Positions 12,911-40,777 are shown, counted from the first letter of the stretch. The stretch: DNA of 40,777 nt from an uncultured bacterium (GCA_964438445.1 CAYTLV010000001.1:22763-63539); one strand, 5' to 3'. Translations and numbers: made by a program. Notes: a model not told the origin generated them from the sequence alone.

Positions 12911-12933
12911 GACAATTCCTTATTATTTCTTAG

Positions 12934-13006
12934 AGCCACCTGCCGGATTTGAACCGGCGACCTACGCTTTACGAAAGCGTTGCTCTACCAACTGAGCTAA
13001 GGTGGC
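12934..13006 (-). tRNA. tRNA-Thr (anticodon CGT)
   Basis: Hand-folded 73-nt cloverleaf: GCCACCT/AGGTGGC acceptor, GCTC/GAGC D stem, ACGCT-TTCGTAA-AGCGT anticodon arm, GCCGG-TTCAAAT-CCGGC T arm, discriminator T. CCA is not encoded. Confidence 0.85.
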
Positions 13007-15198: not shown

Positions 15199-15260
15199 AG
15201 ACAACTTGGCGAAGAACAAATAACTTGTGAATGATTTTTAGCTTGATTACATTTTCAATT

Positions 15261-16047: not shown

Positions 16048-16050
16048 CTG

Positions 16051-16125
16051 TGAGCGTTGAGGGACTCGAACCCCCGACCCCCTGCTTGTAAGGCAGGTGC
16101 TCTAAACCAACTGAGCTAAACGCCC
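16051..16125 (-). tRNA. tRNA-Val (anticodon TAC)
   Basis: Hand-folded 75-nt cloverleaf: GGGCGTT/AACGCTC acceptor (one G-U pair), CCTGC-CTTACAA-GCAGG anticodon arm, GGGGG-TTCGAGT-CCCTC T arm, discriminator A. Confidence 0.85.
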
Positions 16126-23940: not shown

Positions 23941-26900
23941 TTATCGAATAATGGCAAATTTGCCAATGTGTTTTCTACCATCAGGAAGCTCGACAGCGAA
24001 GACATAAAGTCCCGGCGCGATTTCCTGACGATTGATCGTTGTCAGGTCCCATGCTTCAGAATCATCATAGGGATTATTGTGCTCTACCATATTTACGAAT
24101 TCACCGGTTAAGGTAAATATCTTGATCGTACATTCTGTTGGAAGATTGGTAAACAAAAGCTTTTTGGTATACTGACTCTGTTCCCATTGTGCAGACACAA
24201 AATAGGGATTCGGAACTACTTTAATAGCTCCCAGATCATCTTCTGTTAAATTTACTTCCTCACTAAAATCAGCTGCTGTAAATCTAAATTCATCACCATC
24301 TTCAAAAGGTTTGTGTGTTCGGAAGTACAGGGTATCACCCGGAGTAAAGGGGTAACCTGTTGGAGCAAGCAATAAAGTATCCCATATAAATTCAAACGAC
24401 CATGTAGCCATGGGCATGGCTGCAGGATAGCCCGGCACGCCCGTTTCAAAAAAGATTATTTCATCTAAATAGTTGAGCGTATCGTCTTTTGATATTGCTT
24501 CTTCCTTGATCCAGATGGGAACTCTTTCGCCATCCGGTAAACGTATCGCTTTAAATGGGACAGGACCGGCAAAGGCAGGAATGGGAACATTCCAATAAGC
24601 CGTATCTAATATTTCATCCGCAGCCCCAAAAATAATTGCATAATCCGAGGCGGTCGGATAAGGCAAAGTGGAGCGGGGTTCTGTCGTGATATATTTTTGA
24701 CCGGATGCCCATGAAATTGAATCAACTGCTGCTTTTTCAATATTGTCAAATACAACCTGAAGACCATCAAATATTGGACGATAATTTGTGACAACATTGG
24801 GGTCAATATCATTGTTAGCCAATTCACTTACCAGTGTGTCATTCTCGGTCATATCGATCACGGTATATTTGGGAGCGTTAATTTTGGGACCCTTTATGGC
24901 AGGACTTGCAGAGATCGTGATTTTATATTCATGATCCGTTACATTTCCGGGTTCCGCTATTCTAATCAAGGTCTCGGTATTTCCAATAGTGCTGTCACCG
25001 GGAACAAGATTAATATGTGCTTTGATATCGATAGGATAGCGCGACGGCGTGATCCTTACAAATTGCGGAGAAAGAGGTGTCGTCCCTTTGGGATTTTCCA
25101 AGCTTTCCAGTGCATAGGTTGACCATTGATCATCCACATTGGTTGTTGACCAAGTGGTATCATATCTGATCACTTCGTAGACTATACCCGAAGAATCATC
25201 AATAACTTCTTCTGTCGATATTTCAATTGAATAACCAGGTTCAATACCAATATCAAAGGCCGTTACAGCGTAAGTATATTCTTTACCGATCTGAACATCT
25301 TCATCAAGATATTCATGTTGTAGACCGTTATCTGTTCCCAGGTTCATCCATGGCGCCACAGGATCAGGACCGGAAACACCACGGTTATATCGGGCCATAT
25401 CTTCATCAAATGTCAAATCATATTGGGCAAGAGGCTCAAAACCAACTTGTGTTTGATTTACATCTAACACCGGGTCACCCCAGTTCTGACCGCCATCAGT
25501 AGATTTATAAAGACGGTATCCTTCAAAATCCAAATAGCCGGTAACGATATCTTCAGAACTTTCAGCGGCATCATCCCAAACAATACGAACAGCCATTTCC
25601 TCTTTAACGGGATCCCATTCACTAACGGCAGAAACAGTAGGTGCCTGCGGTGCAGAAAAACCCTGATAGCGAAGATCGTACATGATCTGTGCCATATTTG
25701 CATTACGATTAAGATCCGGTACGTTTTCGCCCATGATCACAGCAAATGAGAACATAGCCGTATCGCCCACTGAAAAATCGAATGGACCTGCAGACATCAT
25801 ACAAACACAGTCAAGGCCATCGGGAAATTGTGTTCGAAGACCCTCCATACTATCATAATGCGGATTTAGTTTGCCGCCATTATCAGGATGGAAAAACCAT
25901 ACATCTTCTCTTTCTGTTAAACTGGTCGTATCACCAGCCATCAATTGATACATTAATTCTTCTTTTTTAGGAGATTCGGGTTGCGTACCGTTACCAATAA
26001 ACGGCCCGCCCGAACCTTCCTTATCTGTAACACCGGGTCTATTATACCAATCAAACCAATGCCAGTCTGTTAACCCTAGTTCTTCACCCGGAGCAATATA
26101 ATTTGTCTCATCTACCCATACTGTATCGCTTGCTTGTGGTGTATCAAGTAGTTTAACGGCAGCAAAGGCATCAACATCGAAACGGCCATCACATTCTTTT
26201 TGATCCAGATCGTAGATATAGGCATAATCATAGGTAGCATTATAACCCATCATATCACCATCATTGGTGTTACATGGCCTATATCCGCCGCCGTAATAAG
26301 CAGAAAACATATCTGCGTCAAAATAGAAACCACAGTATGCACCTTTATAATCAAAACCCGCACCATTATTTAAACCGTATTTATCACTTTCGTTCACCAC
26401 TTTCATGGTAACGAACATGATGTCTTCTGCATAAGCACGACCATAAGAATGAACGGTTGCGTAAACACGAGTTCCGGTTGGATACCCATTGTATGCTGAA
26501 ACAGGTTCACGATCGGCGAATTTATCATCAAATTCAAGATAAATATCTACATCAGATGTAAAACGTCCCTCAACTTCTTCACCGTAAGTGGGTGATGATG
26601 GATCGGTATCTACCGCGTACCATCCCGGCCAAAAACGTTCTTCTTCATCTTCATCATTTGTTCGGGTGGGCCAAGATTCGGGAGCAATAGACGTTGCCAA
26701 TAAAGGCCATGAATCATTTTCATCTGTCCATGTAGGTGCAGCATAATCGCCGGCTGTTATATCGCCGGAGAATGTTTTTCCCTTTGATCCCAAAACAACA
26801 TCCCAGTCTGTATTGATCTGGTTTCCCGTGCGGTCCAACCAAGATTCAGAAACTGTAGAACCCCAATAAATGGTGTCGGTTCTCGCAGGATCCGGATGCC

Positions 26901-27207
26901 GGCGATTAGCCCAAGGATAGGCATTTCCGTCTTTATCACTTCCGGGGACTCCGATCATGAAAGATACGTTTGCAAGGTACTGGTAATCACCCCATGCACC
27001 CGCAACATCATCTTGCCAATGATCAACAAAGTTCCCGTAGTTCAAGATTGCTGTTTTAAATTTTCCCTGATCGGCATAACTTTTAGCCCGTTCATAAAGG
27101 GGATTAGCAAATGTTTTTCCAAACTGCGAGCCATATTTATCTTCAAGCGGAATCGCAAGAAGTAAAACTGGTAGTAATAAACATCCTAAGCGTTGAATAT
27201 ATTTCAT
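23941..27207 (-). CDS. 1088-aa secreted protein of unrecognised family with FN3-like middle region and divergent T9SS-like CTD (cassette B)
   Basis: Sec-type N-terminus with no lipobox. Internal landmarks CVCMMSAGPFDFSVGDTAMFSFAVIMG, then VRIVWDD...FEGYRLYKS...YTYAVTAFD. C-terminus VVPNPYF + 13-aa insert + LLFTNLPTECTIKIFTLTGE...GLYVFAVE...GKFAIIR. AAGGAG SD. 11-nt gaps to both neighbours. Confidence 0.8.
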   Translation of the reverse strand: MKYIQRLGCLLLPVLLLAIPLEDKYGSQFGKTFANPLYERAKSYADQGKFKTAILNYGNFVDHWQDDVAGAWGDYQYLANVSFMIGVPGSDKDGNAYPWANRRHPDPARTDTIYWGSTVSESWLDRTGNQINTDWDVVLGSKGKTFSGDITAGDYAAPTWTDENDSWPLLATSIAPESWPTRTNDEDEEERFWPGWYAVDTDPSSPTYGEEVEGRFTSDVDIYLEFDDKFADREPVSAYNGYPTGTRVYATVHSYGRAYAEDIMFVTMKVVNESDKYGLNNGAGFDYKGAYCGFYFDADMFSAYYGGGYRPCNTNDGDMMGYNATYDYAYIYDLDQKECDGRFDVDAFAAVKLLDTPQASDTVWVDETNYIAPGEELGLTDWHWFDWYNRPGVTDKEGSGGPFIGNGTQPESPKKEELMYQLMAGDTTSLTEREDVWFFHPDNGGKLNPHYDSMEGLRTQFPDGLDCVCMMSAGPFDFSVGDTAMFSFAVIMGENVPDLNRNANMAQIMYDLRYQGFSAPQAPTVSAVSEWDPVKEEMAVRIVWDDAAESSEDIVTGYLDFEGYRLYKSTDGGQNWGDPVLDVNQTQVGFEPLAQYDLTFDEDMARYNRGVSGPDPVAPWMNLGTDNGLQHEYLDEDVQIGKEYTYAVTAFDIGIEPGYSIEISTEEVIDDSSGIVYEVIRYDTTWSTTNVDDQWSTYALESLENPKGTTPLSPQFVRITPSRYPIDIKAHINLVPGDSTIGNTETLIRIAEPGNVTDHEYKITISASPAIKGPKINAPKYTVIDMTENDTLVSELANNDIDPNVVTNYRPIFDGLQVVFDNIEKAAVDSISWASGQKYITTEPRSTLPYPTASDYAIIFGAADEILDTAYWNVPIPAFAGPVPFKAIRLPDGERVPIWIKEEAISKDDTLNYLDEIIFFETGVPGYPAAMPMATWSFEFIWDTLLLAPTGYPFTPGDTLYFRTHKPFEDGDEFRFTAADFSEEVNLTEDDLGAIKVVPNPYFVSAQWEQSQYTKKLLFTNLPTECTIKIFTLTGEFVNMVEHNNPYDDSEAWDLTTINRQEIAPGLYVFAVELPDGRKHIGKFAIIR

Positions 27208-27218
27208 TAATTAACTCC

Positions 27219-30104
27219 TTAAAACTCCACTTCTACAAAGAAATCAAGACTTCTCTGATCATCATAATACCAAGGACGATCATAGATGGTTGAACTTCTT
27301 ATACCATCAAGAATATAACCCTCGTCAATACCACCGGGATTGTCCGGAGTCCCTGTACGTGGATAAACGTATAGAGGATTTTCTCTATTGAAGAGATTTG
27401 TACAAACTAAACCAAGTACCAGGCGACTTGAACCAATAATATCAATATACTTTCTAATAGCAAGGTTTGTCGTGTAATAAGCCGGCATACGTTCACTATT
27501 TTGAGGACCCAATTGATCATTGTTCAGAACAGGAGTATAGGGTGCTCCCGAGATCGCCACAAAGGTCAGGTTTGTCATTGTGTTTTGGAAAAGGTTATAT
27601 GAACCGACCGGAATTCCGTATCCCTTGGGAATGCGGAATGTCAATTGTGCACTAAAATCGTGTGTTCGGTCATAATCCTGCAAAACCTCATTCTTCGGCA
27701 TAGTAAGAGGGTTTTCTCCGTTTCGGTAACCTTCCCATGGATCGGAACGGTTTCCTTTCGCCACTGAATAAGTATACTGTATATTGCCGGTCAAGAATTT
27801 ACCCCGGCGTTTTTCAAAGATCATATCCATACCACGAGCTGAACCATAATCATAGTTTACAAAGGTCGTATAGGTTACAGATCCCACACGAACTTGTTCT
27901 GTTGAGTTCATGTTACTGTAATCCTTTGACCAACCAACAACTCCCAGCACATAATTACGTGCTACTTCAGTATTAATACCAAATTCATAACTGGTTACTT
28001 TTTGAGCACTAACATCGGGATTACCAACAAGCGGCAAAGGAGTATTAAAGAATTCATCTAAATTATCGCGCTCATCAATATTGTTATAGATATCGCGATA
28101 AGTAGGATTTTGATAATAAATACCGTATCCGAACGTAAACGTTGCTTTATCTGTAATTACATGTGAAAATCCCAAACGGGGACTCCAAAGAAATTCCCAA
28201 TTAGTCGGAACAAGCACAGAATCCGGAACCCGGGGATCTGCCCACATGGAATCATTTGCGTTGGCTGCGTCAAAACGTAAACCGGCATTGATAACCATCC
28301 AGGGATATTCGATCTTATCTTGAAGATAACCGGCAAATTCTTGGGGAATACGATTATAGTTTTCAGTATAAGGCGTCGATAACCAAGGTAATTGTACTTC
28401 GTCAAAGACAATATCATGTGTCTTATAGTCGAGTCCACTCTTTATCTGATTATGCCTGCCAACCTGTGATGTAAGATCTAATCTATATTCCTGAGTACGA
28501 GTACGAGTATAGTGAAAATATCTATCTGCGCCACTATAGTAATACTCTCCGGAATAATTCTTTAAATTAGGGCTGGCCTGATACTCTATGGTCATTTTTT
28601 CATCAATAAAAGGATATAATATATAAGGTTGGTTGTACTGTTCAGGTGTAAGCCACTCACCCATTTCATCACCATGATGCCAAATGGTATCTGCTCCTGA
28701 GAGCACATACTCAAGTGGAATATAATTTCCTGTTCCATCATCCACGTAAGGAACTTGAGTGCTATCATAGAAATTTTCTAAATAACGCTGTTCTACCCAA
28801 TCGGGGTAACCGTCGCCATCGGAATCATAGTTCCGTACACCCATGGTCATTTCTTGTGTAAAATTAGAATAATTAAAAGTGTAATAGGTCTTGTCATTTA
28901 ATTGATGGCGCCATTCTAAAGCATAGCGTTTTGACACTTTTTCTACTTCATTTTTACCAAGATCATAATAAATATAAACAGGGTCAAACGCCTTATAATT
29001 TGAATTTACATACCAATGCGAAAGATTTAAACGAATCTTTGGCGACACAAGAAAAGTCAGTTTTGAAAATATATCAAATGTATTGTCAAATCCAAATGAA
29101 CGCCATCCTGCAATTGTGTCTAAAGGATTAATGTGATTATCTTCGTTATAATCGCTTAGGGGATCATCCATATCAAAAGCATAATCGTCAAATTCGTATA
29201 CCGCATAAGCGCTATTCGTTTGATCAAAACTGGTCCACCAACGAATTCTATCCGTAAAAAGGGGTCCGCCAAAACCACCTGCGATCTTGGAATAATTTCG
29301 CAACTGATCTTGCTCTGCTGAGACGGGCCCAAAATTACTGCGTTCATAGCGTAGCATTCCGGTAAATTTGCTTGGGCCGGTTTGCGTAACGGTATTGATC
29401 ATACCGGACATTGCATCGCCGTACTCAGCATTAAAAAAACCCGTCTGGAAATCAACCTGCGCTACAGCAAATTGGTTCAAACGCGTACCTTTACCCTTGC
29501 CTCCGTAAAGCGGGTTTTCAAGGTACATACCATCAATCATGAAACCTGTCTCATTGGCTCGACCGCCACGAACATGAATCTGCTCGATACCGCGTTCTTC
29601 AAATCCGGGGATACCCAAATCGGCAGTCTTGATCTCAATAATACCCGATTGCAGTGTATAAACTTCAGTCATATCACGAACGGGAAGATTAAGCACCTGT
29701 TCTGATTCCATGATAATCTTACGTCCAACTACATCTTTTTCAACAGAAGGACGATCTGCAATCACTTCTACAACTTCGCCTTGGACAGCCTCGACTTCCA
29801 TACGAACGTTAATAATAGTTGATTGATCACGAATAACTTTAACACTTCGTTGGATTACTTTTTTAAAGCCGATCATTGTATATGTTACAGTAAATTCACC
29901 GATCGGAAGGTTGATAATATTGTAATAGCCTGTCTGGTCCGCAAAGGTCCCCATATGGGTATCTTCAACCATGATGTTGACACCCATAAGCGGTTCATTG
30001 GTCCCGGCAGCCACAATGGTACCGCGGATAGAACCAACAATATCGCCATAAGCCATGCCAAAAAATAGCAGACAAACTACAAAAAGGATATAACCTTTCT
30101 TCAT
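27219..30104 (-). CDS. TonB-dependent receptor-like outer-membrane protein with N-terminal CarboxypepD_reg domain (SusC/Oar-type; cassette B)
   Basis: Signal peptide. CarboxypepD_reg-like GSIRGTIVAAGTNEPLMGVNIMV...GYYNIINLPIGEFTVTYTMIGF. Linker GEVVEVIADRP. Plug IHVRGGRANETGFMIDGMYLENP. Long Gly/aromatic-rich barrel. C-terminal FFVEVEF with terminal Phe. Confidence 0.85.
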   Translation of the reverse strand: MKKGYILFVVCLLFFGMAYGDIVGSIRGTIVAAGTNEPLMGVNIMVEDTHMGTFADQTGYYNIINLPIGEFTVTYTMIGFKKVIQRSVKVIRDQSTIINVRMEVEAVQGEVVEVIADRPSVEKDVVGRKIIMESEQVLNLPVRDMTEVYTLQSGIIEIKTADLGIPGFEERGIEQIHVRGGRANETGFMIDGMYLENPLYGGKGKGTRLNQFAVAQVDFQTGFFNAEYGDAMSGMINTVTQTGPSKFTGMLRYERSNFGPVSAEQDQLRNYSKIAGGFGGPLFTDRIRWWTSFDQTNSAYAVYEFDDYAFDMDDPLSDYNEDNHINPLDTIAGWRSFGFDNTFDIFSKLTFLVSPKIRLNLSHWYVNSNYKAFDPVYIYYDLGKNEVEKVSKRYALEWRHQLNDKTYYTFNYSNFTQEMTMGVRNYDSDGDGYPDWVEQRYLENFYDSTQVPYVDDGTGNYIPLEYVLSGADTIWHHGDEMGEWLTPEQYNQPYILYPFIDEKMTIEYQASPNLKNYSGEYYYSGADRYFHYTRTRTQEYRLDLTSQVGRHNQIKSGLDYKTHDIVFDEVQLPWLSTPYTENYNRIPQEFAGYLQDKIEYPWMVINAGLRFDAANANDSMWADPRVPDSVLVPTNWEFLWSPRLGFSHVITDKATFTFGYGIYYQNPTYRDIYNNIDERDNLDEFFNTPLPLVGNPDVSAQKVTSYEFGINTEVARNYVLGVVGWSKDYSNMNSTEQVRVGSVTYTTFVNYDYGSARGMDMIFEKRRGKFLTGNIQYTYSVAKGNRSDPWEGYRNGENPLTMPKNEVLQDYDRTHDFSAQLTFRIPKGYGIPVGSYNLFQNTMTNLTFVAISGAPYTPVLNNDQLGPQNSERMPAYYTTNLAIRKYIDIIGSSRLVLGLVCTNLFNRENPLYVYPRTGTPDNPGGIDEGYILDGIRSSTIYDRPWYYDDQRSLDFFVEVEF

Positions 30105-30119
30105 ACAATCCCCTTTAGG

Positions 30120-30152
30120 ACAGGTCGCCCTTCCAATGGAAGGGCGACCTGT
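30120..30152 (-). promoter_or_regulatory. perfect 15-bp GC-rich hairpin (3-nt loop) between the BNR gene stop and the receptor RBS
   Basis: ACAGGTCGCCCTTCC-AAT-GGAAGGGCGACCTGT. On the minus strand it is followed directly by CCTAAAGGGGATTGTATG (SD plus start of the 27219-30104 gene) and has no U-tract. Confidence 0.6.
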
Positions 30153-30167
30153 ATGTTTGTAAACAAT

Positions 30168-32258
30168 TTATTTTAATAATACTGATTTTCGAGTAACAGT
30201 TACATTATCCCCTGTCAGAGAATAGAAATAAATACCCGAGGACATGTTTGAACCGTCAAGTTCAATTTCATAATGTCCACTTCCTTTATATTCACTGAAA
30301 AGAGTTTTAACTTTTCTACCTAAGGTATTAAATACTTCAAGATTGTATTTACCTGCTTGATGGATATCAAAATTGATCGTTGTAATAGGATTGAAAGGAT
30401 TGGGATAATTTTGTTCAAGCTCGAATTTAGCTGGAACATCAACAAAACCTTCAATTCCACTGACGACTGATGAATAATCTACATCCATGAAATATAAACG
30501 ATTCTTATAATCTTCCGGTACTGCGTCTGAAGTATCATCATCTACAGTATGGGTAGCATAGTCCGGAACCTGATATATAAGATAAACATGATCATCGGTA
30601 GCATCGGGATCAGCATGTGCACAAATTTCATCGAAGTCATCTGTGTTCGTTGCGTTAATCTCTGTCTGCCAAGTTTGACCGGCGTTTATTGAACGTCGAA
30701 CATATATATCATAAGATTTTTTATATAGCAGTGTATCGCCAGGGGATTCGGGGTCTTCTTCTTTATAGATATTACCTTTGGGATAAACGGCGTAAATGAC
30801 ATCAGGGTTTTCGGTGGACGTTGCCATTGCGGGGAAAAAACTTTGCCATGCGCGATCACCATGACCATAAGAAAAACGCCAGGTATTCTGCATACTTGTT
30901 ACAAAAGATACGCTCCAAACTGCTGATTCTGATGCCGGATCTGCACAATAAAGATGATAAAATCCACAATATTCATTTACTGTTGGCATAATATAGCCCG
31001 ACTCTTCAGATTCAGGAATAACCAAACACATAAAGTGAACACCACCATTTGCATCAACAACCACGTCATTATCATATCCGATAAATAGACCCGGGTAATT
31101 TAAAGTATCAAGAATTGCATCTTCAGAACCTGTAAGCTCATCAACGATCACGGTATCTGTACCATTAACAACTTCAAATTGTTGTGAAGGAAGATAAACG
31201 TCAAAAATATTATCATCAAAAATATGGTCCTCAACATAATAATAAGGGACATCATCATCAAAAGATGTTTCACTCCATGTTGCACCATAATCAGTTGTTT
31301 TACGGAATTTAAAGGTGTGATATGCGTTATCCTCAACCATAGTATCAATCCCCGTATGCCAGTACGCAACATTTGCAATATAGCCTGTACCATTATCTGC
31401 AATTGAGATCATAGCATCTGAGGTGGTTGAGCCGTCTGCAGTACCTTCTTCAAAATAGGTCAAAGCATCAAGGATTTTCACAGGTTCCTGAAAGGTAATA
31501 GCTCCGGTCGTGATATCATTTGAGCGGAATAAGTACATGTTATGACTACTAATTGTTCCTGTAACGTCAAATTCGCGCCACGTGGTAAATGTCATATTTA
31601 AATGTCCGGTTCCGCCGTCTTCTTCACAATAGTCCGGGCAACCCATCCACATAGCTTCCGGGTTTGTTGTTACATTACCAATAACCTGGGGTGGGGACAA
31701 ATAGGGAAAACCATATGGCAGTAGTGTTTCATCTACAGAAAATAATGGAAGTGCGTCATTTTCAACTCCACTTTCCAAGCCGGTGTATTCAGTCCACGCG
31801 ATCATAAGACTGTTTCCAGCACCAATGGCAGAAGGATATCTTGCTGCCAATTCACCGGGAGATGTTGCGTTTACATTACTTTGATTTGACCATGTTACAC
31901 CATCGTTCAGACTGTATGCCATTCCAACAACACCAGAAGATGCTTCAATACCGGCCCACTGGCGATAAGCCATAACAAATGTGTTTCCATTATGAGAGAC
32001 AGGATTAGTAACGCCGGAGACAAGTCCAAAACCATTTTTACTTGAATCGATCAATACAGCCGCAAATGCCGGATCATAAGCTGATGCGGATTTCGCGGTA
32101 GCTTTTGATAACTGTTCACTATAGATCTCTCTACCTGTTTCTTTTACAATTCGCTCTACTTTACCTTTGTAGTTTAACGGTAATATTTCCGTTTGAACTG
32201 CAAAAACTGAGCTAAGTAACAACACCGCCACAAGTGTTGCGATAACAATGCGTTTCAT
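30168..32258 (-). CDS. secreted BNR/Asp-box repeat (beta-propeller-like) protein with T9SS type-A CTD
   Basis: Three Asp-boxes: SLNDGVTW, TTDYGATW, SINAGQTW. CTD is YPNPFNPITTINF...SGIYFYSLTGD...RKSVLLK. The track start 32270 is TTG. ATG 32258 (MKRIVIATLVAVLLL) has GGAGG 5 nt upstream. Confidence 0.8.
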   Translation of the reverse strand: MKRIVIATLVAVLLLSSVFAVQTEILPLNYKGKVERIVKETGREIYSEQLSKATAKSASAYDPAFAAVLIDSSKNGFGLVSGVTNPVSHNGNTFVMAYRQWAGIEASSGVVGMAYSLNDGVTWSNQSNVNATSPGELAARYPSAIGAGNSLMIAWTEYTGLESGVENDALPLFSVDETLLPYGFPYLSPPQVIGNVTTNPEAMWMGCPDYCEEDGGTGHLNMTFTTWREFDVTGTISSHNMYLFRSNDITTGAITFQEPVKILDALTYFEEGTADGSTTSDAMISIADNGTGYIANVAYWHTGIDTMVEDNAYHTFKFRKTTDYGATWSETSFDDDVPYYYVEDHIFDDNIFDVYLPSQQFEVVNGTDTVIVDELTGSEDAILDTLNYPGLFIGYDNDVVVDANGGVHFMCLVIPESEESGYIMPTVNEYCGFYHLYCADPASESAVWSVSFVTSMQNTWRFSYGHGDRAWQSFFPAMATSTENPDVIYAVYPKGNIYKEEDPESPGDTLLYKKSYDIYVRRSINAGQTWQTEINATNTDDFDEICAHADPDATDDHVYLIYQVPDYATHTVDDDTSDAVPEDYKNRLYFMDVDYSSVVSGIEGFVDVPAKFELEQNYPNPFNPITTINFDIHQAGKYNLEVFNTLGRKVKTLFSEYKGSGHYEIELDGSNMSSGIYFYSLTGDNVTVTRKSVLLK

Positions 32259-32276
32259 AACAACCTCCAAATTGTT

Positions 32277-32726
32277 TTAATCAACGTATAAGCTTGATGT
32301 TTCTTTTTCTGTTTTCAATACAATGGTCGAATCAGTGTTTTTCACGTTATCGATCAAATTCATGCTATCCAATAATTTTTCAAGATCCTCTGTACCTGAA
32401 GTACGGACTTTAGCCATAATAGAGCCCTTACCGGCGATATAGTGGATTTCTTGTATTTTGTCAAATCCCGCAAGTACCTTTCCGGTATCTCGCATTTTTG
32501 TTAGGTCATAAAGAGAGATCAACACGATTGCCAGAAGGTTCAACCCCAATATAGCCGGTTCTAATCTTGCTTCATACGCCTTAACTATCCCTGCTTTTTC
32601 AAGCTTTTTTACACGCTCATAAATCGCAGAAGCTGTCATTCCCATATGTCGTGCTATCTCTGCATTTGATGTTCTTGCATTATCCTGCAAGATCTTCAAA
32701 ATAATCCTGTCTTTTTGGTCTAACAT
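32277..32726 (-). CDS. Lrp/AsnC-family transcriptional regulator
   Basis: N-terminal wHTH LDQKDRIILKILQDNARTSNAEIARHMGMTASAIYERVKKLEKAGIV followed by a RAM/ACT-like effector domain. 149 aa. Confidence 0.88.
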   Translation of the reverse strand: MLDQKDRIILKILQDNARTSNAEIARHMGMTASAIYERVKKLEKAGIVKAYEARLEPAILGLNLLAIVLISLYDLTKMRDTGKVLAGFDKIQEIHYIAGKGSIMAKVRTSGTEDLEKLLDSMNLIDNVKNTDSTIVLKTEKETSSLYVD

Positions 32727-32981
32727 TTTGTTATTCTCCAGTTAAAGTTAAAATTACATGATAAATTGCAGGTCAACAAGAAAAAAAACGAATAATTTTG
32801 AAATATATAAGTTTAAATAAAGAGTTTATTGATGATTTATTGCTACAGCATTAGTATATATATCCCAAAAGATAAAATATCTAGGGTGAACCCTATAAAA
32901 ATACTACGAAATCTGCTTCTATATCGCCATGTCTGATATATTGTGATCAAAGGCGGGCTGAAGAGTGCTTTTCTCGGTTGT

Positions 32982-32993
32982 TGATGGTTGAAA
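32982..32993. repeat. copy 1 of the 12-nt direct repeat TGATGGTTGAAA
   Basis: Exact 12-mer, also found at 33164-33175. This copy overlaps a small palindrome ATGGTT-GA-AACCAT (32984-32997). Confidence 0.85.
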
Positions 32994-33032
32994 CCATAAG
33001 AAGAATTTAATAAATCATGTCATCGCGTACTT

Positions 33033-33139
33033 GATCCGGGATTTCATTTATTGATCACTCCAACTTATTTGGGAATCTCCCATTATTCAGATCCCGGATA
33101 AACTTGCCACCGGTCCCCGATCGTTCGGGGTTCCGGGAT
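33033..33139. other. GC-rich structured non-coding segment with mutually exclusive helices (possible ncRNA or leader)
   Basis: ATCCGGGAT (33034-33042), ATCCCGGAT (33091-33099) and TCCGGGAT (33132-33139). The middle element is complementary to both outer ones (9 bp and 8 bp). Nested hairpins CCCCGA-TCGT-TCGGGG (33115-33130) and GGGA-ATC-TCCC (33071-33081). No ORF of 60 aa or more. The strand cannot be assigned because the pairings are palindromic. Confidence 0.4.
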
Positions 33140-33163
33140 AACACAAGGGAGGGGATCGAGAGC

Positions 33164-33175
33164 TGATGGTTGAAA
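33164..33175. repeat. copy 2 of the 12-nt direct repeat TGATGGTTGAAA
   Basis: Exact match to 32982-32993. The two copies bracket the structured segment. Confidence 0.85.
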
Positions 33176-33256
33176 ATAAAGTCGATTTGTCTAGCCGTCT
33201 GGTGAATTCTTGAATCTTGCCTTTTGGATCTTCATCTTTGTACTTTGTACTTGAAT

Positions 33257-33287
33257 AAAAAAACCCTCCGCGAAGGAGGGTTTTTTT
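33257..33287 (-). terminator. rho-independent (bidirectional-looking) terminator after cassette A
   Basis: Minus strand reads AAAAAAACCCTCC-TTCGC-GGAGGGTTTTTTT, 22 nt after the stop at 33309. Confidence 0.75.
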
Positions 33288-33308
33288 ATTATGTCTTAAG
33301 TATTCGAC

Positions 33309-34373: not shown

Positions 34374-37300
34374 TCAATAATATTCCAGAATTTGTTTCTT
34401 CTGAACGATCATGACTTTCAAGATCTTCTGTACACCTGTTACACCATCAATTACTACATCAGGCATATCGATATGCGCAATGTACATACCACTACCAACA
34501 GGGATGTCTGACTCATTGGCCAAAGTCCACTTTTCGAACTGACCACTCACGTGCTCAATTGTTTTAACCAATACACCAGCAAGATTGAATATCTTGATGG
34601 TTGCCGTTGTCGGCAGGTGTGTAAAGGTTACATACTGATCATAAGGCGTCGTTGCCAGTTCGTTGTATGCGTAGTATGGATTCGGGAATACATTGATCTT
34701 ATCAAGTGCAAGTGTCATCAATGAATCGCTTGTTTCCGGAGCATAATCAGCAGTTGAGAATGCAAATACATCTTGGTTGGCAACATTTACATTAGAAGCA
34801 AAAATTTCTATTTCAAATTCTTCTTCTACATAATACCAGCCACCTCTGTCAACTGGTGAAATATTATACAACACAGGCCAAGCAAAGCAATCGTCTGAAC
34901 TGCCTCCCGGCAAATAATCGGTATATGTTGCATCATAATCATCATTGAGAAAGTAAATATACTCATATCCACCTGCAGCAGCATAAATTGAATCCACAGG
35001 ATTATATCCCATATCCCAAATATTATTTTGGCCGGGAGTTCCTGTGTCTTCCAAAAATGCTATTTTCAGTCTGCGTGGAGGAATGCTTTCAGTATCATAA
35101 GCTGCTATTGGAATGTCTGCCAGAGAAGTACCCCAGTTACCCCAACCGTCAATGCTAACAGCCTTAGACCATCTATCTGGACTCGAAAGCTTACTATTTG
35201 CCATTTTTTCCGCCATTGTAGCTACACTACCCTTGACAGTATCTCCGGCAAAATACAGTTTCACATCCATGTAGTCTAAACCTGATGTTAATGTAGTTCC
35301 AAGATGTTGATTTCCATTACCTAAACCACCCCAGAGACCAATCCATCCTTTATCTCTACCTGAAATCCAACGACCACCGTCAAAATCCCAACCAGCAAGA
35401 TAAGCATCATCGTAACTGGCATAAGCGGGACCATAATTTGTGCTGTAGAAATCGCCGTGTTTGTTTGGATTGATACCCACAGGTGGACCTGAAACTCTGA
35501 TACCTAAACCATCAACGAGAGTTGTTGCTTCAAGATCTTCCAAAGTTCCAAGAACTTTTTGACCTGTTACAGCAACCGTATCAAGATCAAGATCGGTCAA
35601 TGCCCATTGTGTTTCCGAACTATCAGTATTGAAAACAAAACTGATCTCATAATCGTGACCTGTTACAGCCACGGGATCAATCACAACGAGTTGGATCTGA
35701 CCATCGCTAATACCTACTGTATGCGTTGTTGGAATCGCCATATCAGGAGCAACTGTAGCTGTACCCGGTAGTGATTCTTGAAGTGTAGCTGCCAATGCAA
35801 TCAAAGAAGATTCTTGAGCTTGTTCAGACAAGCGTCCGGGGTCTAAATTTTGATTGTATGCAGTTACGGCAAAATAATAAGTTTTACCTTCATACAGAGG
35901 TTTTCCATCAATATAATCCCAATCTATGGTTAAGAAACGTTCAATTCCCGAATCAGAGCCATAAACGATCGGAACGCTTACGGGGCTACCTTCATATTCA
36001 TCGGGGGTGCGTGTTTCGTAAATCATTCTAATACCATTAACGATATCAAAAGTTGCAAGTCGAATAGCTTGATCTTTCGTTGCAGTAGCATGAGGTAACT
36101 GATAAACGTTATATCCTTCAAATACATATCCGGATACTACAGTTTCTTCGACCTGAGCTACACTTTCCTGGTCTGATCCCCATTCAAGAATAAGAGTATT
36201 TTCTTGAGGACGAACCGTAACATTCGGTGAAGCCGGAGGTTTCGGAACTTCAAGGAACAAACCATTAAACAAGGTCTGTGCTACAGCATCCGTAAGTTTA
36301 AGGTCTGCGACTGAACCGATATTGTCTGCACCTAAACCACCAAGAATAGCCACAACGACTTCTTGTGATTCGCCCGGGGCGAAAGTAAATGGACCGGATG
36401 ACAAACACATGCGGCGGTCACCGGGTGTAAAGTAGCTTTCTGTACCATCAACTTCGAGTGCTCCGGGAATAGTAGGATCTCCATAAAGCGGAAACTTTGT
36501 TGTTGCTGCACCGGCTACGTTACCAAGAGTCCAAGGAGAAGGAGCATCCACGTCTTCAGTCGGTTTGAAACCCCTGAGCAGGTTATAGAACTCAAGAGTA
36601 CCGACATAGTCGCCAAGTTCCGGATCTTCAATAGCGGAACCCGCTGCAAACCAACCGAATGAAGTCATAGGAAGGTTTTCGTGATCCAAAACATATTCGA
36701 GTCCACTAATAGCAGTGTCGCCGACACTGGCTATCATAGGGCCCTGGAAAAAGTCATAACCGAAAGCGGGGGGTGCGAGGCCAAAGACATCGTAATCGGC
36801 ATCGGTAGCTTCACCATTGTAGGAATAGCCCATACTTAATGTCGTGTCACAACCTGCATAGTCATTGGCTGCAGAACCCAGATCGGGGTCAGCCCACATG
36901 GATACATATACATCGGTCATGGTGGTATTTGATTTGTTGATCAGTTTGTTGGATCGGAAAATGATCTGTCCCAAACGAACACCGGCCTGATTGTAAGCCC
37001 AGAGAGTCGTCTGTAGCTCGACACCAATAGGTTGTGAGCCGTAAAGACTGGTTGTTACGGTTGCGCTATAGTCGTTTACTACATACCACAACACCTGATC
37101 TGCCTGAGCGATACCAGGTGTTTCACCGATATCGGGGTCGTAAACACCGTCATCATTAAGATCATAAAATGGAGCACCCCATGCTGTTGGCCATTCTTCC
37201 CAATCTAATGCATATTGATCCATTATGTCTTGGGTCATGGCTTCGGTAACACTGCTGGCTGAAGTTTCATTCAGCTCTGCAGCATCCGCGATAAGCATAG

Positions 37301-37745
37301 CGTGATTCAGGCTTAAATAATCGGTGCGAATACGGTAAACGCGAACGAGTGGGTCCGCAGCACTGGCAATCTCATAAGTTCCATCTTCGTAATTTCCGCC
37401 GGTAATAACACGGCCTGGTTGTGTTCCGATATTATAGGTTTGTCCACCAACACGAATTTCTTCGCTTGTGCCGTATTTACCACCCCAAATAAAACCATCC
37501 TGATAGATAGCGCCGGCTGTACCGCGAGGATAAATACCTCCGGAACTTCCATTCGGCTGTTGAGCGGTTTTACCATTGTAATAAACCCAGTAACCCCAGT
37601 TTGAAATATTCGACATCGTCCGGGTTACCTGGCCGGCTGTCGTTGCCGCTGTTTTCGCTAACGGTTGGCCATCCAATGGCTTGGCCACCAATCCCACAGC
37701 GAAGAGTAACGCGACAATGGTTACTATTGTAATTATTTTCTTCAT
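34374..37745 (-). CDS. ~1120-aa secreted protein of unrecognised family with FN3-like middle region and divergent T9SS-like CTD (cassette A)
   Basis: The track start 37775 is TTG. AAGGAG at 37757-37752 sits 3 or 6 nt before ATG 37748 or ATG 37745, giving the signal peptide M(M)KKIITIVTIVALLFAVGLVA. Landmarks RRMCLSSGPFTFAPGESQEVVVAILGG, then LILEWGSD...FEGYNVYQLP...YYFAVTAYN. C-terminus VFPNPYY + insert + VTFTHLPTTATIKIFNLAGV...GMYIAHID...KVMIVQKKQILEYY. Confidence 0.8.
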   Translation of the reverse strand: MKKIITIVTIVALLFAVGLVAKPLDGQPLAKTAATTAGQVTRTMSNISNWGYWVYYNGKTAQQPNGSSGGIYPRGTAGAIYQDGFIWGGKYGTSEEIRVGGQTYNIGTQPGRVITGGNYEDGTYEIASAADPLVRVYRIRTDYLSLNHAMLIADAAELNETSASSVTEAMTQDIMDQYALDWEEWPTAWGAPFYDLNDDGVYDPDIGETPGIAQADQVLWYVVNDYSATVTTSLYGSQPIGVELQTTLWAYNQAGVRLGQIIFRSNKLINKSNTTMTDVYVSMWADPDLGSAANDYAGCDTTLSMGYSYNGEATDADYDVFGLAPPAFGYDFFQGPMIASVGDTAISGLEYVLDHENLPMTSFGWFAAGSAIEDPELGDYVGTLEFYNLLRGFKPTEDVDAPSPWTLGNVAGAATTKFPLYGDPTIPGALEVDGTESYFTPGDRRMCLSSGPFTFAPGESQEVVVAILGGLGADNIGSVADLKLTDAVAQTLFNGLFLEVPKPPASPNVTVRPQENTLILEWGSDQESVAQVEETVVSGYVFEGYNVYQLPHATATKDQAIRLATFDIVNGIRMIYETRTPDEYEGSPVSVPIVYGSDSGIERFLTIDWDYIDGKPLYEGKTYYFAVTAYNQNLDPGRLSEQAQESSLIALAATLQESLPGTATVAPDMAIPTTHTVGISDGQIQLVVIDPVAVTGHDYEISFVFNTDSSETQWALTDLDLDTVAVTGQKVLGTLEDLEATTLVDGLGIRVSGPPVGINPNKHGDFYSTNYGPAYASYDDAYLAGWDFDGGRWISGRDKGWIGLWGGLGNGNQHLGTTLTSGLDYMDVKLYFAGDTVKGSVATMAEKMANSKLSSPDRWSKAVSIDGWGNWGTSLADIPIAAYDTESIPPRRLKIAFLEDTGTPGQNNIWDMGYNPVDSIYAAAGGYEYIYFLNDDYDATYTDYLPGGSSDDCFAWPVLYNISPVDRGGWYYVEEEFEIEIFASNVNVANQDVFAFSTADYAPETSDSLMTLALDKINVFPNPYYAYNELATTPYDQYVTFTHLPTTATIKIFNLAGVLVKTIEHVSGQFEKWTLANESDIPVGSGMYIAHIDMPDVVIDGVTGVQKILKVMIVQKKQILEYY

Positions 37746-37777
37746 CATTATCTCCTTAACTATACGTTTCATCAATG

Positions 37778-40777
37778 TTAGAATGATAAGCGAACGCCAA
37801 AGGTAATCTGACGGGGATTGCCAAATAGCTCTCTACTAATGCTATCCCAGTAAGCCTGACCATTGACCAAATTAATGGCTGTATACATATCTATATAATC
37901 TTGTCCACCATTATTTGCGATCGTAGTTGCTGAGCGAACAGGGTCGGTCAGGAAACCATCGTCTTCCGCGTTTCCGGTGAATTCATATACATTGACAATA
38001 TTCTTACGGTTAAAGAGGTTGGTAACCATAACAAATACATTGGCGTCCAAAGATCCGATCATAAAGGATTTGTCCAAACGAAGATCGGTAGTGAACTGCC
38101 AAGGTGTTGTTGAGGCACCAATAGGTTCCAATGCTATTCTATCACGGGTATCATCCATATAGTCGATACCTGCGGTATAGGGATCAGATTGACCACCGAC
38201 TTTTACATCAACAAATGTAAAGGGGTGACCACTTGAGAAACCAATCAAAAGGTTAGCGCCCATGTTTTCAAGCAGGAAGCCACCATCGTTATCACCGAAG
38301 CGATAATCGAGGTTGATCGATCCAGTATGCATCTGTGAAAAATCCAAAGGATTGATCGTAGACGGCATTTGGGTGTTCATATAAAGAGCACCATGAGCTG
38401 CCGTACTGTTAGATGCAGTACCTTCCGCCATAGTTAGAGTATAATTGATACTTCCTGCAAGACGGTTTGTACGGCGCATATTCATACGAACTTCAACACC
38501 TTTCTGTGTTGCAAAATCGCCATTTTCAAATCTGTCGTAATAACCCGGAATCGTTGATCCGGACGTAGGAAGCTGTTTAACCACTTCAACCAAGCCTTTT
38601 ACATTTTTGTAAAACGCTGTCAGGTCTAATGCAGCAAAATCTGTGATCTCGCGACGGAAACCAACTTCGTATGAAGTGGTGCGCAGCGGATCCAAACCAA
38701 ATCCAACCGGGTTCTGAAAATAGAAACCCTGGCGGACAATATGACGAGCATAAGTATAAGAAGAGAAATATGCTTCGTTCAATCGCGGCATCTGTACAAA
38801 CTGACCATAATTCAAATAGAAGACAGTTTTATCATCAATTGGGAAAGAGAAACCGATACGAGGACTTAAATTGATAGACGGTGCCTTATTTACCCATGCA
38901 GAATCCGCTAACATTGAGGTAGCAGGATCAACAGCCGGGTTGGCCGGGTCAACAAGTTCTCGGTCGTCTGTATCAAAATAATCAAATCTAAGACCGGCAT
39001 TGATGATAAGATCTTTATATTCGATCTTGTCCATTAAATAAGCTGCAAACTCAGTCGGATGTTTGGGACCATCAATATAGGTACCATCATCATAAACGGT
39101 TTGTGTTGTCGTTTTATTGCCAAATGCATCATAGCCATAAGCGTCAACACCTGCGTTTTGGATCCATTGAGCTATTGGAATAGAATCCAAATTACCATAC
39201 TGAGTATAACCGGAAACCGAACCGGGTTCGCCTGCATAGATCATAGCAGCAGGAGCAACACCGAAGTAGCGAATTGTATATTGTTTAATATCAGCACCTA
39301 TTTTAAGCTCGTGATGTTTATTGATTTGATTGACATAATCAATATTCAAGCCAACGTAGGTTTGTTCCTGATTCAGGTAAAAGTTTAAAGGTTCGCCATC
39401 GCGCTCAACAGGAAAACCATTAACAATATAATTGTATTGAGGTCTGTAGGCGTTACGGTAAGTTACTTCACCACCGGTATATTCGGAAACTGCTGTACTA
39501 TCCCACCATTTTTTCCAGTCGTTACCAAAATACGGATCATTCAATTCGCGTTGGTAGCGGAAATAACTGGCCTTCACATCAATATATGATGTGTTTGAGA
39601 ATAGTTTAGTAGCTTTTGCCGATATAAGTGTTGTGGGTGTAGTATAATAATAGGTTCTGTTGTTCATCGTGTTAAGCATAACCGGTGCATTGTATGAACG
39701 GTCATATTTTGTCCAGTCGTGCAACACATCAAAACGAAGGCGAATCGGAAGATCAATAGTGACTGATCCGTTAATCGCATAAGTTAAGTCTTTTGAACCT
39801 GTAGTAAATCCATCAGGATATACCATATTAACTGTATCAGCATTTGTGTCATCATTCGGATTGTTGTTGATCATATTCAGAAATTCGAACCCTTCGCTGA
39901 AACGAACTTCGGAATCCAGTTGTTGGTCATACTGTCCGGCAACAAAAAATTTAACTTTTTTGCCGATCGGGCCACCAAGAGTGGCGATCATGGAATTATG
40001 TCCATAATTATAAGTTCCAAGAACTTTTTGTCCGAGAGTTGGATCACGGAAACCGTCTGTACGGCCTTCAAATGATCCTGTTAATTTTGAGCTACCACTT
40101 TTGAGCTCAGTTTTCACGATACCTGCATTTGCATTTCCCATATCAGCGGTATAACCGCCGGCAAATACTTGAATTTCTTCAATAGCATCATGAATGATCG
40201 TCATTACGTTATTATTATTGGTCGGCAATGATGTTGACACACCACCTACTAAAAACTTAACTTCGTGAGGACGACCACCACGGATATGAACTTGTCCATC
40301 CTGGAGGACCACTCCAGCCATGCCAGCAATAATGTTCGCAACACCGCGAACAGGTACATTTTCAAGTTCATCTGATGTTGTCATGGAAACAGAGGATGTC
40401 ACAGATTTTTCGAACAATTTACGTTCTGCCACAACGGTCACTTCCTGACCCGCGATAACAGATCCTTCAAGTTCAAAATTCAACTCGGTCGTAACACTTG
40501 AAAGAACACGAACTTTTTGGATCGTGAGTTTCTTATGTGAAATGATCGATGCTGAAACATCATAGGCTCCAACCGGGACGTTCAAGATAATAAACGAACC
40601 GTCAGCATTCGCTGCCGCTCCGAGAACCGTTCCTTCTAGAAGAACATTGGCTCCCGCTAGGGGTTCATTTGTCTTGCCGTCCGTGACTACTCCCACAATC
40701 TTACCTGTAGCCTGCGCGAAAACGCACATAGGTAAAATCATAAGAATAGCTAATACGGCTACAACAAGCTTCTTCAT
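37778..40777 (-). CDS. TonB-dependent receptor-like outer-membrane protein with N-terminal CarboxypepD_reg domain (SusC/Oar-type; cassette A)
   Basis: The ATG is the last three bases of the window. Signal peptide MKKLVVAVLAILMILPMCVFAQA. GKIVGVVTDGKTNEPLAGANVLLEGT...GSFIILNVPVGAYDVSASIISH. Linker GQEVTVVAER. Plug VHIRGGRPHEVKFLVGG. C-terminal FGVRLSF. The promoter lies outside the window. Confidence 0.85.
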   Translation of the reverse strand: MKKLVVAVLAILMILPMCVFAQATGKIVGVVTDGKTNEPLAGANVLLEGTVLGAAANADGSFIILNVPVGAYDVSASIISHKKLTIQKVRVLSSVTTELNFELEGSVIAGQEVTVVAERKLFEKSVTSSVSMTTSDELENVPVRGVANIIAGMAGVVLQDGQVHIRGGRPHEVKFLVGGVSTSLPTNNNNVMTIIHDAIEEIQVFAGGYTADMGNANAGIVKTELKSGSSKLTGSFEGRTDGFRDPTLGQKVLGTYNYGHNSMIATLGGPIGKKVKFFVAGQYDQQLDSEVRFSEGFEFLNMINNNPNDDTNADTVNMVYPDGFTTGSKDLTYAINGSVTIDLPIRLRFDVLHDWTKYDRSYNAPVMLNTMNNRTYYYTTPTTLISAKATKLFSNTSYIDVKASYFRYQRELNDPYFGNDWKKWWDSTAVSEYTGGEVTYRNAYRPQYNYIVNGFPVERDGEPLNFYLNQEQTYVGLNIDYVNQINKHHELKIGADIKQYTIRYFGVAPAAMIYAGEPGSVSGYTQYGNLDSIPIAQWIQNAGVDAYGYDAFGNKTTTQTVYDDGTYIDGPKHPTEFAAYLMDKIEYKDLIINAGLRFDYFDTDDRELVDPANPAVDPATSMLADSAWVNKAPSINLSPRIGFSFPIDDKTVFYLNYGQFVQMPRLNEAYFSSYTYARHIVRQGFYFQNPVGFGLDPLRTTSYEVGFRREITDFAALDLTAFYKNVKGLVEVVKQLPTSGSTIPGYYDRFENGDFATQKGVEVRMNMRRTNRLAGSINYTLTMAEGTASNSTAAHGALYMNTQMPSTINPLDFSQMHTGSINLDYRFGDNDGGFLLENMGANLLIGFSSGHPFTFVDVKVGGQSDPYTAGIDYMDDTRDRIALEPIGASTTPWQFTTDLRLDKSFMIGSLDANVFVMVTNLFNRKNIVNVYEFTGNAEDDGFLTDPVRSATTIANNGGQDYIDMYTAINLVNGQAYWDSISRELFGNPRQITFGVRLSF

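Follow-up and report, generated by a model that had tools for sequence, protein, structure and literature searches.

A conserved multi-phylum gene module combines an all-beta giant protein carrying a PorZ-like C-terminal domain with a TonB-dependent transporter homolog and a PorV/PorQ-family barrel

PorZ and PorU are type IX secretion substrates with unprocessed C-terminal domains (CTDs), and the CTD of PorZ is kept and binds the PorQ barrel (PMC10202324). Cognate PorV-like barrels have been proposed to shield CTDs from cleavage, and the genes for type B cargo cluster with those of their PorP/SprF carriers (PMC10202324); the carrier-protein mechanism has been described elsewhere (PMC10994853). 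In the SprB-SprF pair of Flavobacterium johnsoniae, a large surface protein with a type B CTD, which is probably not cleaved, is encoded beside its dedicated carrier and anchor barrel (PMC10202324, PMC10994853). In the SusC/SusD and RagA/RagB nutrient importers and the "utilisomes", all of Bacteroidota, the gene for a SusC-style receptor stands beside that of its surface partner, a SusD-like helical lipoprotein, in paralogous units with variable specificity elements. Here, we analyzed a 40,777-nucleotide stretch of DNA from an uncultured bacterium (GCA_964438445.1, CAYTLV010000001.1:22763-63539; hereafter the window, with positions counted from its first letter), which contains two three-gene cassettes, A and B, each encoding a protein of about 1,100 residues (giant A and giant B) between a TonB-dependent receptor-like protein and a PorV/PorQ-family barrel. 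The giant is the central part of a conserved outer-membrane module that is found in several phyla and joins components of familiar kinds in a combination for which we know of no precedent; the literature yielded no account of the trio, though one may exist. An earlier note on this DNA, made from the sequence alone, had singled out the giants as proteins without a recognizable catalytic or binding signature, and had seen neither the meaning of the cassette nor the PorZ-like nature of the CTD nor the size and spread of the family.

Every gene in the cassette region of the window is on the minus strand, and both cassettes have the same gene order, namely, receptor, giant, and barrel, with gaps of 2 to 36 nucleotides (nt) within the cassettes (Table 1). 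The open reading frame (ORF) of giant A spans 34374..37775 from a TTG codon, and the ATG at 37745 gives a protein of 1,123 amino acids (aa). The closest homologs of the giants are from Marinimicrobia (= Neomarinimicrobiota/Fidelibacterota). A scan of one genome per species revealed at least 353 related loci, the best 80 of which belonged to Marinimicrobia, Calditrichota (including Caldithrix abyssi), Latescibacterota, Ignavibacteriota (including Melioribacter isolates), Kryptonia, Handelsmanbacteria, and metagenome-assembled genomes (MAGs) labelled Bacteroidota. The ORFs of 82 loci were searched with the window proteins, and the loci with enough flanking sequence served as denominators. The gene next to the giant encoded a receptor on the upstream side in 68 of 75 loci (median gap of 32 nt) and a PorV-like protein on the downstream side in 68 of 71 (median gap of 27 nt). 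The cassette loci spanned Marinimicrobia, Calditrichota, Latescibacterota, Ignavibacteriota (including Melioribacter), Kryptonia, and others. Furthermore, the pairwise distance matrices of the 56 complete trios correlated with r values of 0.83 to 0.88 (Mantel p 0.001), and the identity between cassettes A and B of the window was similar for the receptors (25%), the giants (23%), and the barrels (27%). Taken together, this co-divergence and the equal divergence of A and B indicate that the cassette duplicates and diverges as a unit, in which each giant keeps its own receptor and barrel.

Some loci showed peculiarities. An exception to the cassette rule was observed in a Calditrichaceae MAG (L047, 26-11491), in which four giant paralogs form a tandem array that is not interrupted by a receptor or PorV-like gene. 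In 6 to 11 loci of the Ignavibacteria type (e.g., L069 9600-11848, L050 11846-12892, and L029 1006-1719), a DUF4397 protein is encoded before the cassette, and a GWxTD-domain protein, a lipid A acyltransferase, and a GT9 heptosyltransferase are encoded after it, an envelope/lipopolysaccharide (LPS) synteny of a single lineage.

The CTDs of the giants are PorZ-like in sequence. Giant A matched the NCBIfam PorZ model at the C-terminal end only (E 2.5e-6), and giant B matched it more weakly (E 0.0059); the scores with the PorZ equivalog NF052228 were 26.2 (A) and 15.1 (B) bits, compared with a cutoff of 260, and covered model positions 663-757 only. TIGR04183 gave 17.5 bits with giant A (cutoff of 23) and no match with giant B, PF18962 matched neither giant, and no match to type B CTDs (CHU_C/TIGR04131) was obtained for either giant in Pfam or NCBIfam. 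In local alignments, the giant CTDs reached scores of 74 to 78 with the CTD of Porphyromonas gingivalis PorZ (z of 12 to 14 against shuffles), as compared to 27 to 49 (z of 0.6 to 5) with the four ordinary type A CTDs of the window, and they are in this respect closer to PorZ than to the cargo CTDs encoded in their own neighborhood. Seven strands are predicted between residues 1018 and 1113 in the model of giant A, in agreement with an Ig-like sandwich. Giant B ends in "...GKFAIIR", compared with "...RFAVIR" in PorZ. In the A-type giants, the CTD is followed by a short, conserved extension or tail (consensus "QxxQILEYY"; residues 1113-1123 of giant A, window 34374-34406) that is predicted to be helical, whereas the B-type giants and PorZ stop directly at "...FA(I/V)IR".

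The resemblance to PorZ is restricted to this domain. We rejected the identification of the giant as PorZ or PorU, since the fold of the body and the full-length models fail: the model of giant A consists of beta-sandwiches and not of the two beta-propellers of PorZ, with template modelling (TM) scores of 0.10 to 0.14 to 5m11. The PorZ-PorQ pair of P. gingivalis nevertheless provides the nearest CTD sequence and the closest parallel for the proposed arrangement, namely, the type A-like CTD of a secreted protein on a PorV/PorQ-family barrel. It differs from the pair studied here, in which giant and barrel are encoded side by side, in several paralogous copies, in one unit with a TonB-dependent receptor, and in hosts outside Bacteroidota proper. 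With SprB-SprF, the cassette shares the large protein encoded next to its barrel, but the CTD of the giant is not of type B, the barrel is of the PorV/PorQ and not of the PorP/SprF family, a receptor is attached, and no role in gliding is implied.

The type of CTD is linked to the presence of the cassette. The N-terminal part of the giant (residues 38-505 of giant A; hereafter the N-module) is shared by a large family: a phmmer search of 1.84 billion representatives of clusters at 50% identity resulted in 6,074 matches at E≤1e-3 and 1,217 at E≤1e-30, and among the 150 best matches listed the module is N-terminal, in proteins mostly of 1,000 to 1,300 aa. About half of 99 full-length representatives carried a PorZ-like "PNPY[YFL]" CTD, and 48 had an ordinary "PNPFN" type A CTD. 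Contigs of seven members with ordinary CTDs were examined, of which one was too short to judge and six were used. None of the six had a receptor gene upstream and none of five a PorV-like gene downstream (Fisher p of about 3e-6 and 5e-6, respectively). Hence, the PorZ-like CTD goes hand in hand with the private barrel and the receptor. In some of the free-standing relatives, the variable part comprises BNR/sortilin propellers, PKD, or dockerin domains, and one relative adjoins glycoside hydrolase (GH) genes of the GH31 and GH13/CBM48 families. We also considered the N-module as a mere lid that docks onto the receptor, and rejected this because about half of the family is free-standing with ordinary CTDs.

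The gene upstream of the giant encodes, as judged from profile matches, a TonB-dependent transporter homolog of a divergent subfamily that lies beyond current models. The receptor of cassette A has a signal peptide, a CarboxypepD_reg N-terminal extension, a TonB-box-like "QEVTVVAER", a Plug domain, a barrel of ~780 aa, and a C-terminal Phe; its Pfam matches were CarbopepD_reg_2 (9.9e-15) and Plug (33.7 bits, cutoff of 23.9), and the Plug of the cassette B receptor scored 23.2 bits, just under the cutoff. The receptor barrels (37778-40117 and 27219-29399; ~750 aa) matched no Pfam barrel model, even at E 10. A profile of 30 receptor orthologs, however, matched solved TonB-dependent transporters over plug and barrel, as in 9gbc (1.3e-13), the PhuR barrel (1.3e-9), and RagA (7.6e-9). 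The cassette receptors are not members of the SusC/RagA family TIGR04056, which gave 43.8 bits against a cutoff of 368 and aligned with the N-terminal extension only. The cassette shares with the SusC/SusD systems a SusC-style receptor beside the gene for a surface partner, paralogous units, and variable specificity elements, but its receptor fails the SusC/RagA model, its flanks show no consistent enzyme neighbors, and the partner is an all-beta protein of 1,100 aa that has no lipobox and for which type IX anchoring is proposed. The downstream genes encode PorV/PorQ-family barrels (NF033709, 147.9 bits in A and 205.2 bits in B, cutoff of 90). The equivalog cutoffs of PorV, PorQ, and PorV2 were all unreached, and the PorQ model scored at least as high as the PorV model in both cassettes (105 versus 84 bits in B); the barrel of cassette A matched F. 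johnsoniae PorV (6h3i_F) with 8.3e-7.

We generated an AlphaFold2 model of giant A with 70 homologs, which is almost all beta (mean predicted local distance difference test [pLDDT] score of 86.7 and predicted TM score [pTM] of 0.72). Secondary structure and conservation define the layout of the protein: signal peptide (1-21), N-module (38-505), linker, FN3-like domain (509-657), V1 (658-760), V2 (761-1005), CTD (1006-1113), and tail; residues 15-37 have low pLDDT values. The N-module (468 aa) is one folding unit, in which a small beta domain and a helical hairpin accompany a large beta-super-sandwich with a long helix at its end, and it was predicted with higher scores when modelled alone (pLDDT of 96.1 and pTM of 0.94). 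A Foldseek search of the PDB with the whole chain gave low-TM matches only (PorZ, the FN3 arrays 6mfa, 3t1w, and 4lxo, PorU, and GH N-domains). With the N-module, the matches were consistently, and with few exceptions, to the non-catalytic super-sandwich domains at the N termini of (alpha/alpha)6 enzymes, including those of GH15-like enzymes, GH94 phosphorylases, GH116, GH161, GH142, and cyclic-glucan synthase. These matches had Foldseek probabilities of ~1.0 and E values of 2e-6 to 1e-4, but query TM scores (TMq) of 0.22 to 0.39, root-mean-square deviations of 7 to 12 Å, and identities of ~10%; the GH15-like dextran dextrinase 9ju0 was matched with E 2e-6 and a TMq of 0.37 to 0.39. A library of viral structures yielded one GH65 protein, which shows the same N-domain theme, and nothing else of use. 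The best structural matches to the N-module, and the only consistent ones, are thus the N-domains of GH15-like, GH94, GH116, and GH161 enzymes, which have a galactose-mutarotase-like fold. The N-module differs from them by an additional small beta domain, by a helical hairpin, and by the lack of an adjoining (alpha/alpha)6 domain; the (alpha/alpha)6 catalytic barrel is absent from the model of giant A, which contains only a few helices. The Pfam families for the N-domains of GH15, GH94, and GH116 did not match the giants. The likeness in the model may therefore be a fold-level hint, perhaps of remote homology and possibly related to carbohydrates, and allows no assignment to an enzyme or carbohydrate-binding module (CBM) family.

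Six polar residues of the N-module (D142, D225, Y251, D286, D288, and D295 in giant A) are universally conserved in 122 sequences of A and B types from several phyla. All but D142 are located at strand ends on one edge of the sandwich, and these five form, in the model, a cluster that we infer to be a candidate Ca2+ or ligand site and that could be catalytic.

No recognizable enzyme domain was found in either giant. No Pfam family matched giant A or B at threshold, NCBIfam matches were confined to the last ~100 residues, and PHROGs gave no match. Searches of the PDB by phmmer and with family profiles identified only the PorZ CTD (E 0.24) plus noise. Likewise, Pfam matched none of six long B-type relatives, and no precomputed Pfam domain was present on 240 listed homologs of the giants. 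The statement of the earlier note that the giants lack a catalytic or binding signature accordingly withstood all sequence-profile searches and largely holds. According to the note, this view would be overturned if the N-terminal region could be assigned with confidence to a known enzyme or CBM family; only half of this was obtained, with a Foldseek probability of ~1.0 but TM scores of at most 0.39 and no family membership.

All sequence features described in that note were also recovered, at or very near the coordinates given there. Both giants have Sec signal peptides without a lipobox: giant A starts with MKKIITIVTIVALLFAVGLVA, followed by KP, and contains no Cys in this region, whereas the sole Cys at the N terminus of giant B (MKYIQRLGCLLLPVLLLAIP) comes ahead of the hydrophobic core, and its context "RLGC" does not constitute a lipobox. 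The N-terminal ~470 aa are enriched in W, Y, G, and D, as claimed (2.3, 6.2, 11.5, and 7.7% in A; 3.4, 6.8, 9.8, and 11.3% in B). The conserved blocks CLSSGPFTF (A) and CMMSAGPFDF (B; nt 25774-25803) lie within 5 nt of the ranges given for them; BLASTP and hhalign paired the two, which have an SxGPF block in common. A Pro-rich linker, an FN3-like domain, and a variant CTD follow this block in both giants, and residues 509-657 of giant A are all-beta by DSSP, resemble FN3 arrays in Foldseek, and have a weak Pfam Ig match. The alignment of the two giants proposed in the note revealed true but distant paralogs with 22 to 23% identity (hhalign E 1.7e-50 over residues 211-1094 of giant A). HExxH is absent from both giants, as had been noted, and so are HxxEH and GDSGG motifs; their identification as metalloproteases or serine proteases was rejected on these grounds. 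We also rejected a SusD-like nature, because there is no lipobox and the protein is all-beta; the lack of TPR/SusD-like features seen before is borne out by the almost all-beta structure and by the lack of a SusD match in Pfam.

The long variable region that the earlier note had placed between the FN3 domain and the CTD does exist, but it is not a whole half of the protein and corresponds chiefly to residues 761-1005. Among 69 homologs, the mean identity to giant A was 57% in N1, 61% in N2, 53% in FN3, 37% in V1, 25% in V2 (with 20% gaps), and 57% in the CTD. In phmmer searches of 113 full-length homologs with segments of giant A, V2 was detectable in only 35, whereas every other segment was found in at least 111 (V1 in 111). 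The length of V2 varied between 212 and 441 aa, and all versions were joined by single linkage, which indicates a rapidly diverging module and not unrelated inserts; a swapping of this region among unrelated cassettes was rejected for the same reason. Since V2 is the fastest-evolving and most indel-rich stretch and is located between conserved ends, residues 761-1005 are, judging from these comparisons, the likeliest specificity determinant, so that the corresponding suggestion of the note may hold for V2 but not for the rest of the region.

We tentatively propose, with a confidence that falls a little short of probable, that the giant is a type IX cargo that is held on its own barrel and captures a substrate for the adjacent receptor. 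After Sec export, the private PorV/PorQ-type carrier would take the giant through the type IX translocon, and the uncleaved PorZ-like CTD would stay on the downstream-encoded barrel, tethering the giant to the cell surface. There, the giant would capture, and possibly process, a macromolecular nutrient or polymer via the N-module and would pass it to the upstream-encoded SusC-style receptor for TonB-powered import. It would thus act as a stand-in for SusD or for surface glycan-binding lipoproteins in phyla that use type IX parts, with the super-sandwich and Asp/Tyr cluster of the N-module as the common working part and residues 761-1005 tuning specificity. This proposal is based on the gene order, the co-divergence, the PorZ-like CTD, the PorV/PorQ-family barrel, and the members with ordinary CTDs that have no receptor, as well as on the SusC-like layout of the receptor, the carbohydrate-enzyme-type relatives of the N-module, and the fast V2 between conserved ends. 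A carbohydrate would be our mild favorite as the ligand, by analogy with the fold of the N-module and in view of the free-standing relatives. It is more doubtful that the cassettes represent an unrecognized nutrient-uptake machine of the Fibrobacterota-Chlorobiota-Bacteroidota (FCB) superphylum, in which the extracellular partner of the receptor is both delivered and anchored not by lipidation but by type IX parts (a PorZ-type CTD and a private PorQ-type barrel) and in which the N-module is a new ligand-binding or catalytic family; if true, this would be a SusD-independent, possibly older, counterpart of Sus-like systems.

Several observations weigh against the tethered-capture proposal. Export by type IX secretion, retention of the CTD, contact with barrel and receptor, and the substrate are each inferred. 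The N-module has a function of its own outside the cassette and so is not simply a lid of the receptor, and its likeness to GH N-domains is weak (TM of at most 0.39). A PorV-family gene (L085 3869-4864) was detected immediately upstream of one member with an ordinary CTD (P0254) that has no receptor; dedicated barrels are hence not exclusive to PorZ-like CTDs, and CTD type and barrel are not strictly linked. The flanking genes (342 ORFs in the 82 loci) revealed no common degradative theme but only lineage-specific neighbors, unlike the polysaccharide utilization loci of Bacteroidota. There are no core type IX secretion genes (SprA/Sov, PorK/L/M/N) within the 40.8-kb window, none of the RNA sequencing runs searched contained a giant gene, and no protein expression data were found either. 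CTD proteins have, moreover, been described as restricted to Bacteroidota (PMC10202324).

Other roles of the giant deserve consideration. It could be a surface-tethered enzyme of a new catalytic family, with D225, Y251, D286, D288, and D295 as the active site of a glycosidase, lyase, or peptidase, the products of which are imported by the receptor. The invariance of this cluster across types and phyla is compatible with that idea, as are the occurrence of free-standing N-modules with ordinary secretion tails, as in secreted enzymes, the S8 peptidase and other secreted proteins encoded in the window, and the fact that some beta-sandwich folds are catalytic. We nevertheless consider it unlikely, because no enzyme family was matched by sequence or structure, the structural relatives are accessory and not catalytic domains, and strand-end Asp clusters are equally typical of structural Ca2+ sites. 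Less likely still is an adhesin that attaches cells to particles and is carried on a barrel of its own, in the manner of SprB (on SprF) and RemA (on PorV), next to a functionally independent receptor. Such a role would suit a surface protein that is large, multidomain, and all-beta and that has both a hypervariable module and a gene for a cognate carrier, and the four tandem giants of the Calditrichaceae locus lack a receptor; however, the receptor is linked and has co-diverged as tightly as the barrel and disappears along with the PorZ-like CTD, and a repeat-rich stalk like that of SprB is missing from the giants.

The PorZ-like CTD and the scores of the barrels, for which the PorQ model equals or exceeds the PorV model, would also agree with a housekeeping envelope complex akin to that of type IX attachment, in which the giant handles LPS or cargo as a PorZ analogue on a PorQ analogue, and the GWxTD, lipid A acyltransferase, and heptosyltransferase neighbors of the Ignavibacteria-type loci would fit this picture. 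We regard it as improbable, given that genomes contain several divergent paralogous cassettes with a hypervariable module, that the fold is unlike the two propellers of PorZ and the full PorZ model scores 26 bits as compared to 260, and that the LPS neighbors are confined to one lineage. It appears highly improbable that the receptor-like barrel is the export route of the giant rather than an importer. A CarboxypepD_reg-extended receptor is reportedly needed for protein secretion in the Oar/PopC system of Myxococcus, and the Pfam barrel models fail on so divergent a barrel, but the type IX sorting domain of the giant and its own PorV-family carrier already explain export, and plug and TonB box are features of an importer.

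In oceans, sediments, and the subsurface, Marinimicrobia (SAR406), Calditrichota, Latescibacterota, and Ignavibacteriota are abundant and degrade organic matter. To our knowledge, these four phyla are not known for SusD-type systems, and the capture of polymers at their surface is largely unknown. The N-module family, with its 6,074 clusters at 50% identity, has no Pfam model, and the near-invariant linkage of the three genes suggests a common, unannotated surface apparatus. If the proposed tethered capture is correct, type IX secretion would be tied to TonB-dependent import, the PorZ-PorQ principle of a retained CTD would extend beyond the secretion machinery, and the type of CTD would serve as an annotation rule that predicts tethered versus free deployment. 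Cultured Melioribacter and Caldithrix carry the module, which makes the idea testable in these bacteria.

Table 1. Positions of the cassette genes, of the segments of giant A, and of a nearby terminator-like element in the window
Feature	Coordinates	Strand	Basis or remark
Cassette A gene 1, TonB-dependent receptor-like outer-membrane protein, 999 aa	37778..40777	-	Pfam and profile search
Giant A, 1,123 aa	34374..37745	-	ORF; AlphaFold2 model
Sec (signal peptidase I type) signal peptide of giant A, residues 1-21, no Cys	37683..37745	-	Sequence reading
N-module of giant A, residues 38-505	36231..37634	-	AlphaFold2, Foldseek, phmmer
Acidic cluster D225, Y251, D286, D288, D295	36861..37073	-	Each in at least 98% of 122 sequences; DSSP strand positions
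Conserved block CLSSGPFTF	36381..36407	-	After D443-R444-R445, a triplet invariant in the A family
Pro-rich linker (499-508, VPKPPASPNV) and FN3/Ig-like domain (509-657) of giant A	35775..36251	-	DSSP, Foldseek, Pfam
V1, residues 658-760, moderately conserved beta domain	35466..35774	-	phmmer, identity
V2, residues 761-1005, fast-evolving indel-rich module	34731..35465	-	phmmer, identity, linkage
Variant type IX secretion CTD ("PNPYY...VTFTHLP") and tail "QILEYY"	34374..34730	-	NCBIfam, local alignment
Cassette A gene 3, PorV/PorQ-family outer-membrane barrel, 342 aa	33309..34337	-	NCBIfam NF033709
Terminator-like hairpin and T-run, 33 nt past the cassette A stop codon	33264..33276	-	Consensus match only
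Cassette B gene 1, TonB-dependent receptor-like protein, 961 aa	27219..30104	-	25% identity to A copy
Giant B, 1,088 aa, distant paralog of giant A	23941..27207	-	ORF; BLASTP, hhalign
Cassette B gene 3, PorV/PorQ-family barrel, 348 aa	22883..23929	-	NF033709; 27% identity to A copy

The surroundings of the cassettes provided further observations. A gene for an Lrp/AsnC-family regulator (32277-32726) adjoins cassette A downstream, with a non-coding gap of 580 nt (32727-33308) between them; a link to an amino-acid-responsive control of cassette A is possible, and no such regulator was seen beside the cassettes of other phyla. A perfect 15-bp inverted repeat with 10 G-C pairs and a 3-nt loop (30120-30152) lies between the gene for a 700-aa BNR-repeat/CTD protein and the start of the cassette B receptor, and is probably a terminator or regulatory hairpin that separates two transcription units.

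Four more proteins of the window have ordinary type A sorting domains, with PF18962 above the cutoff. They are encoded at 15231-15917 (plus strand) and at 16241-19627, 19953-22850, and 30168-32270 (minus strand), and include an S8 subtilase with an FG-GAP-type propeller, a 965-aa protein with a weak InhA-like MAM match, the 700-aa BNR-repeat protein, and a 228-aa protein, forming a dense block of secreted proteins in a non-Bacteroidota genome. Marine and salt-lake metagenomes contain the DNA of the window. Its remaining part (7623-12910, 12933-13006, and 16050-16125) has a housekeeping character, with the mreB/PBP2/rodA cell-shape cluster, tRNA-Thr(CGT), tRNA-Val(TAC), transketolase, TyrRS, and FtsH, and these neighbors support a chromosomal, non-mobile setting of the cassettes.

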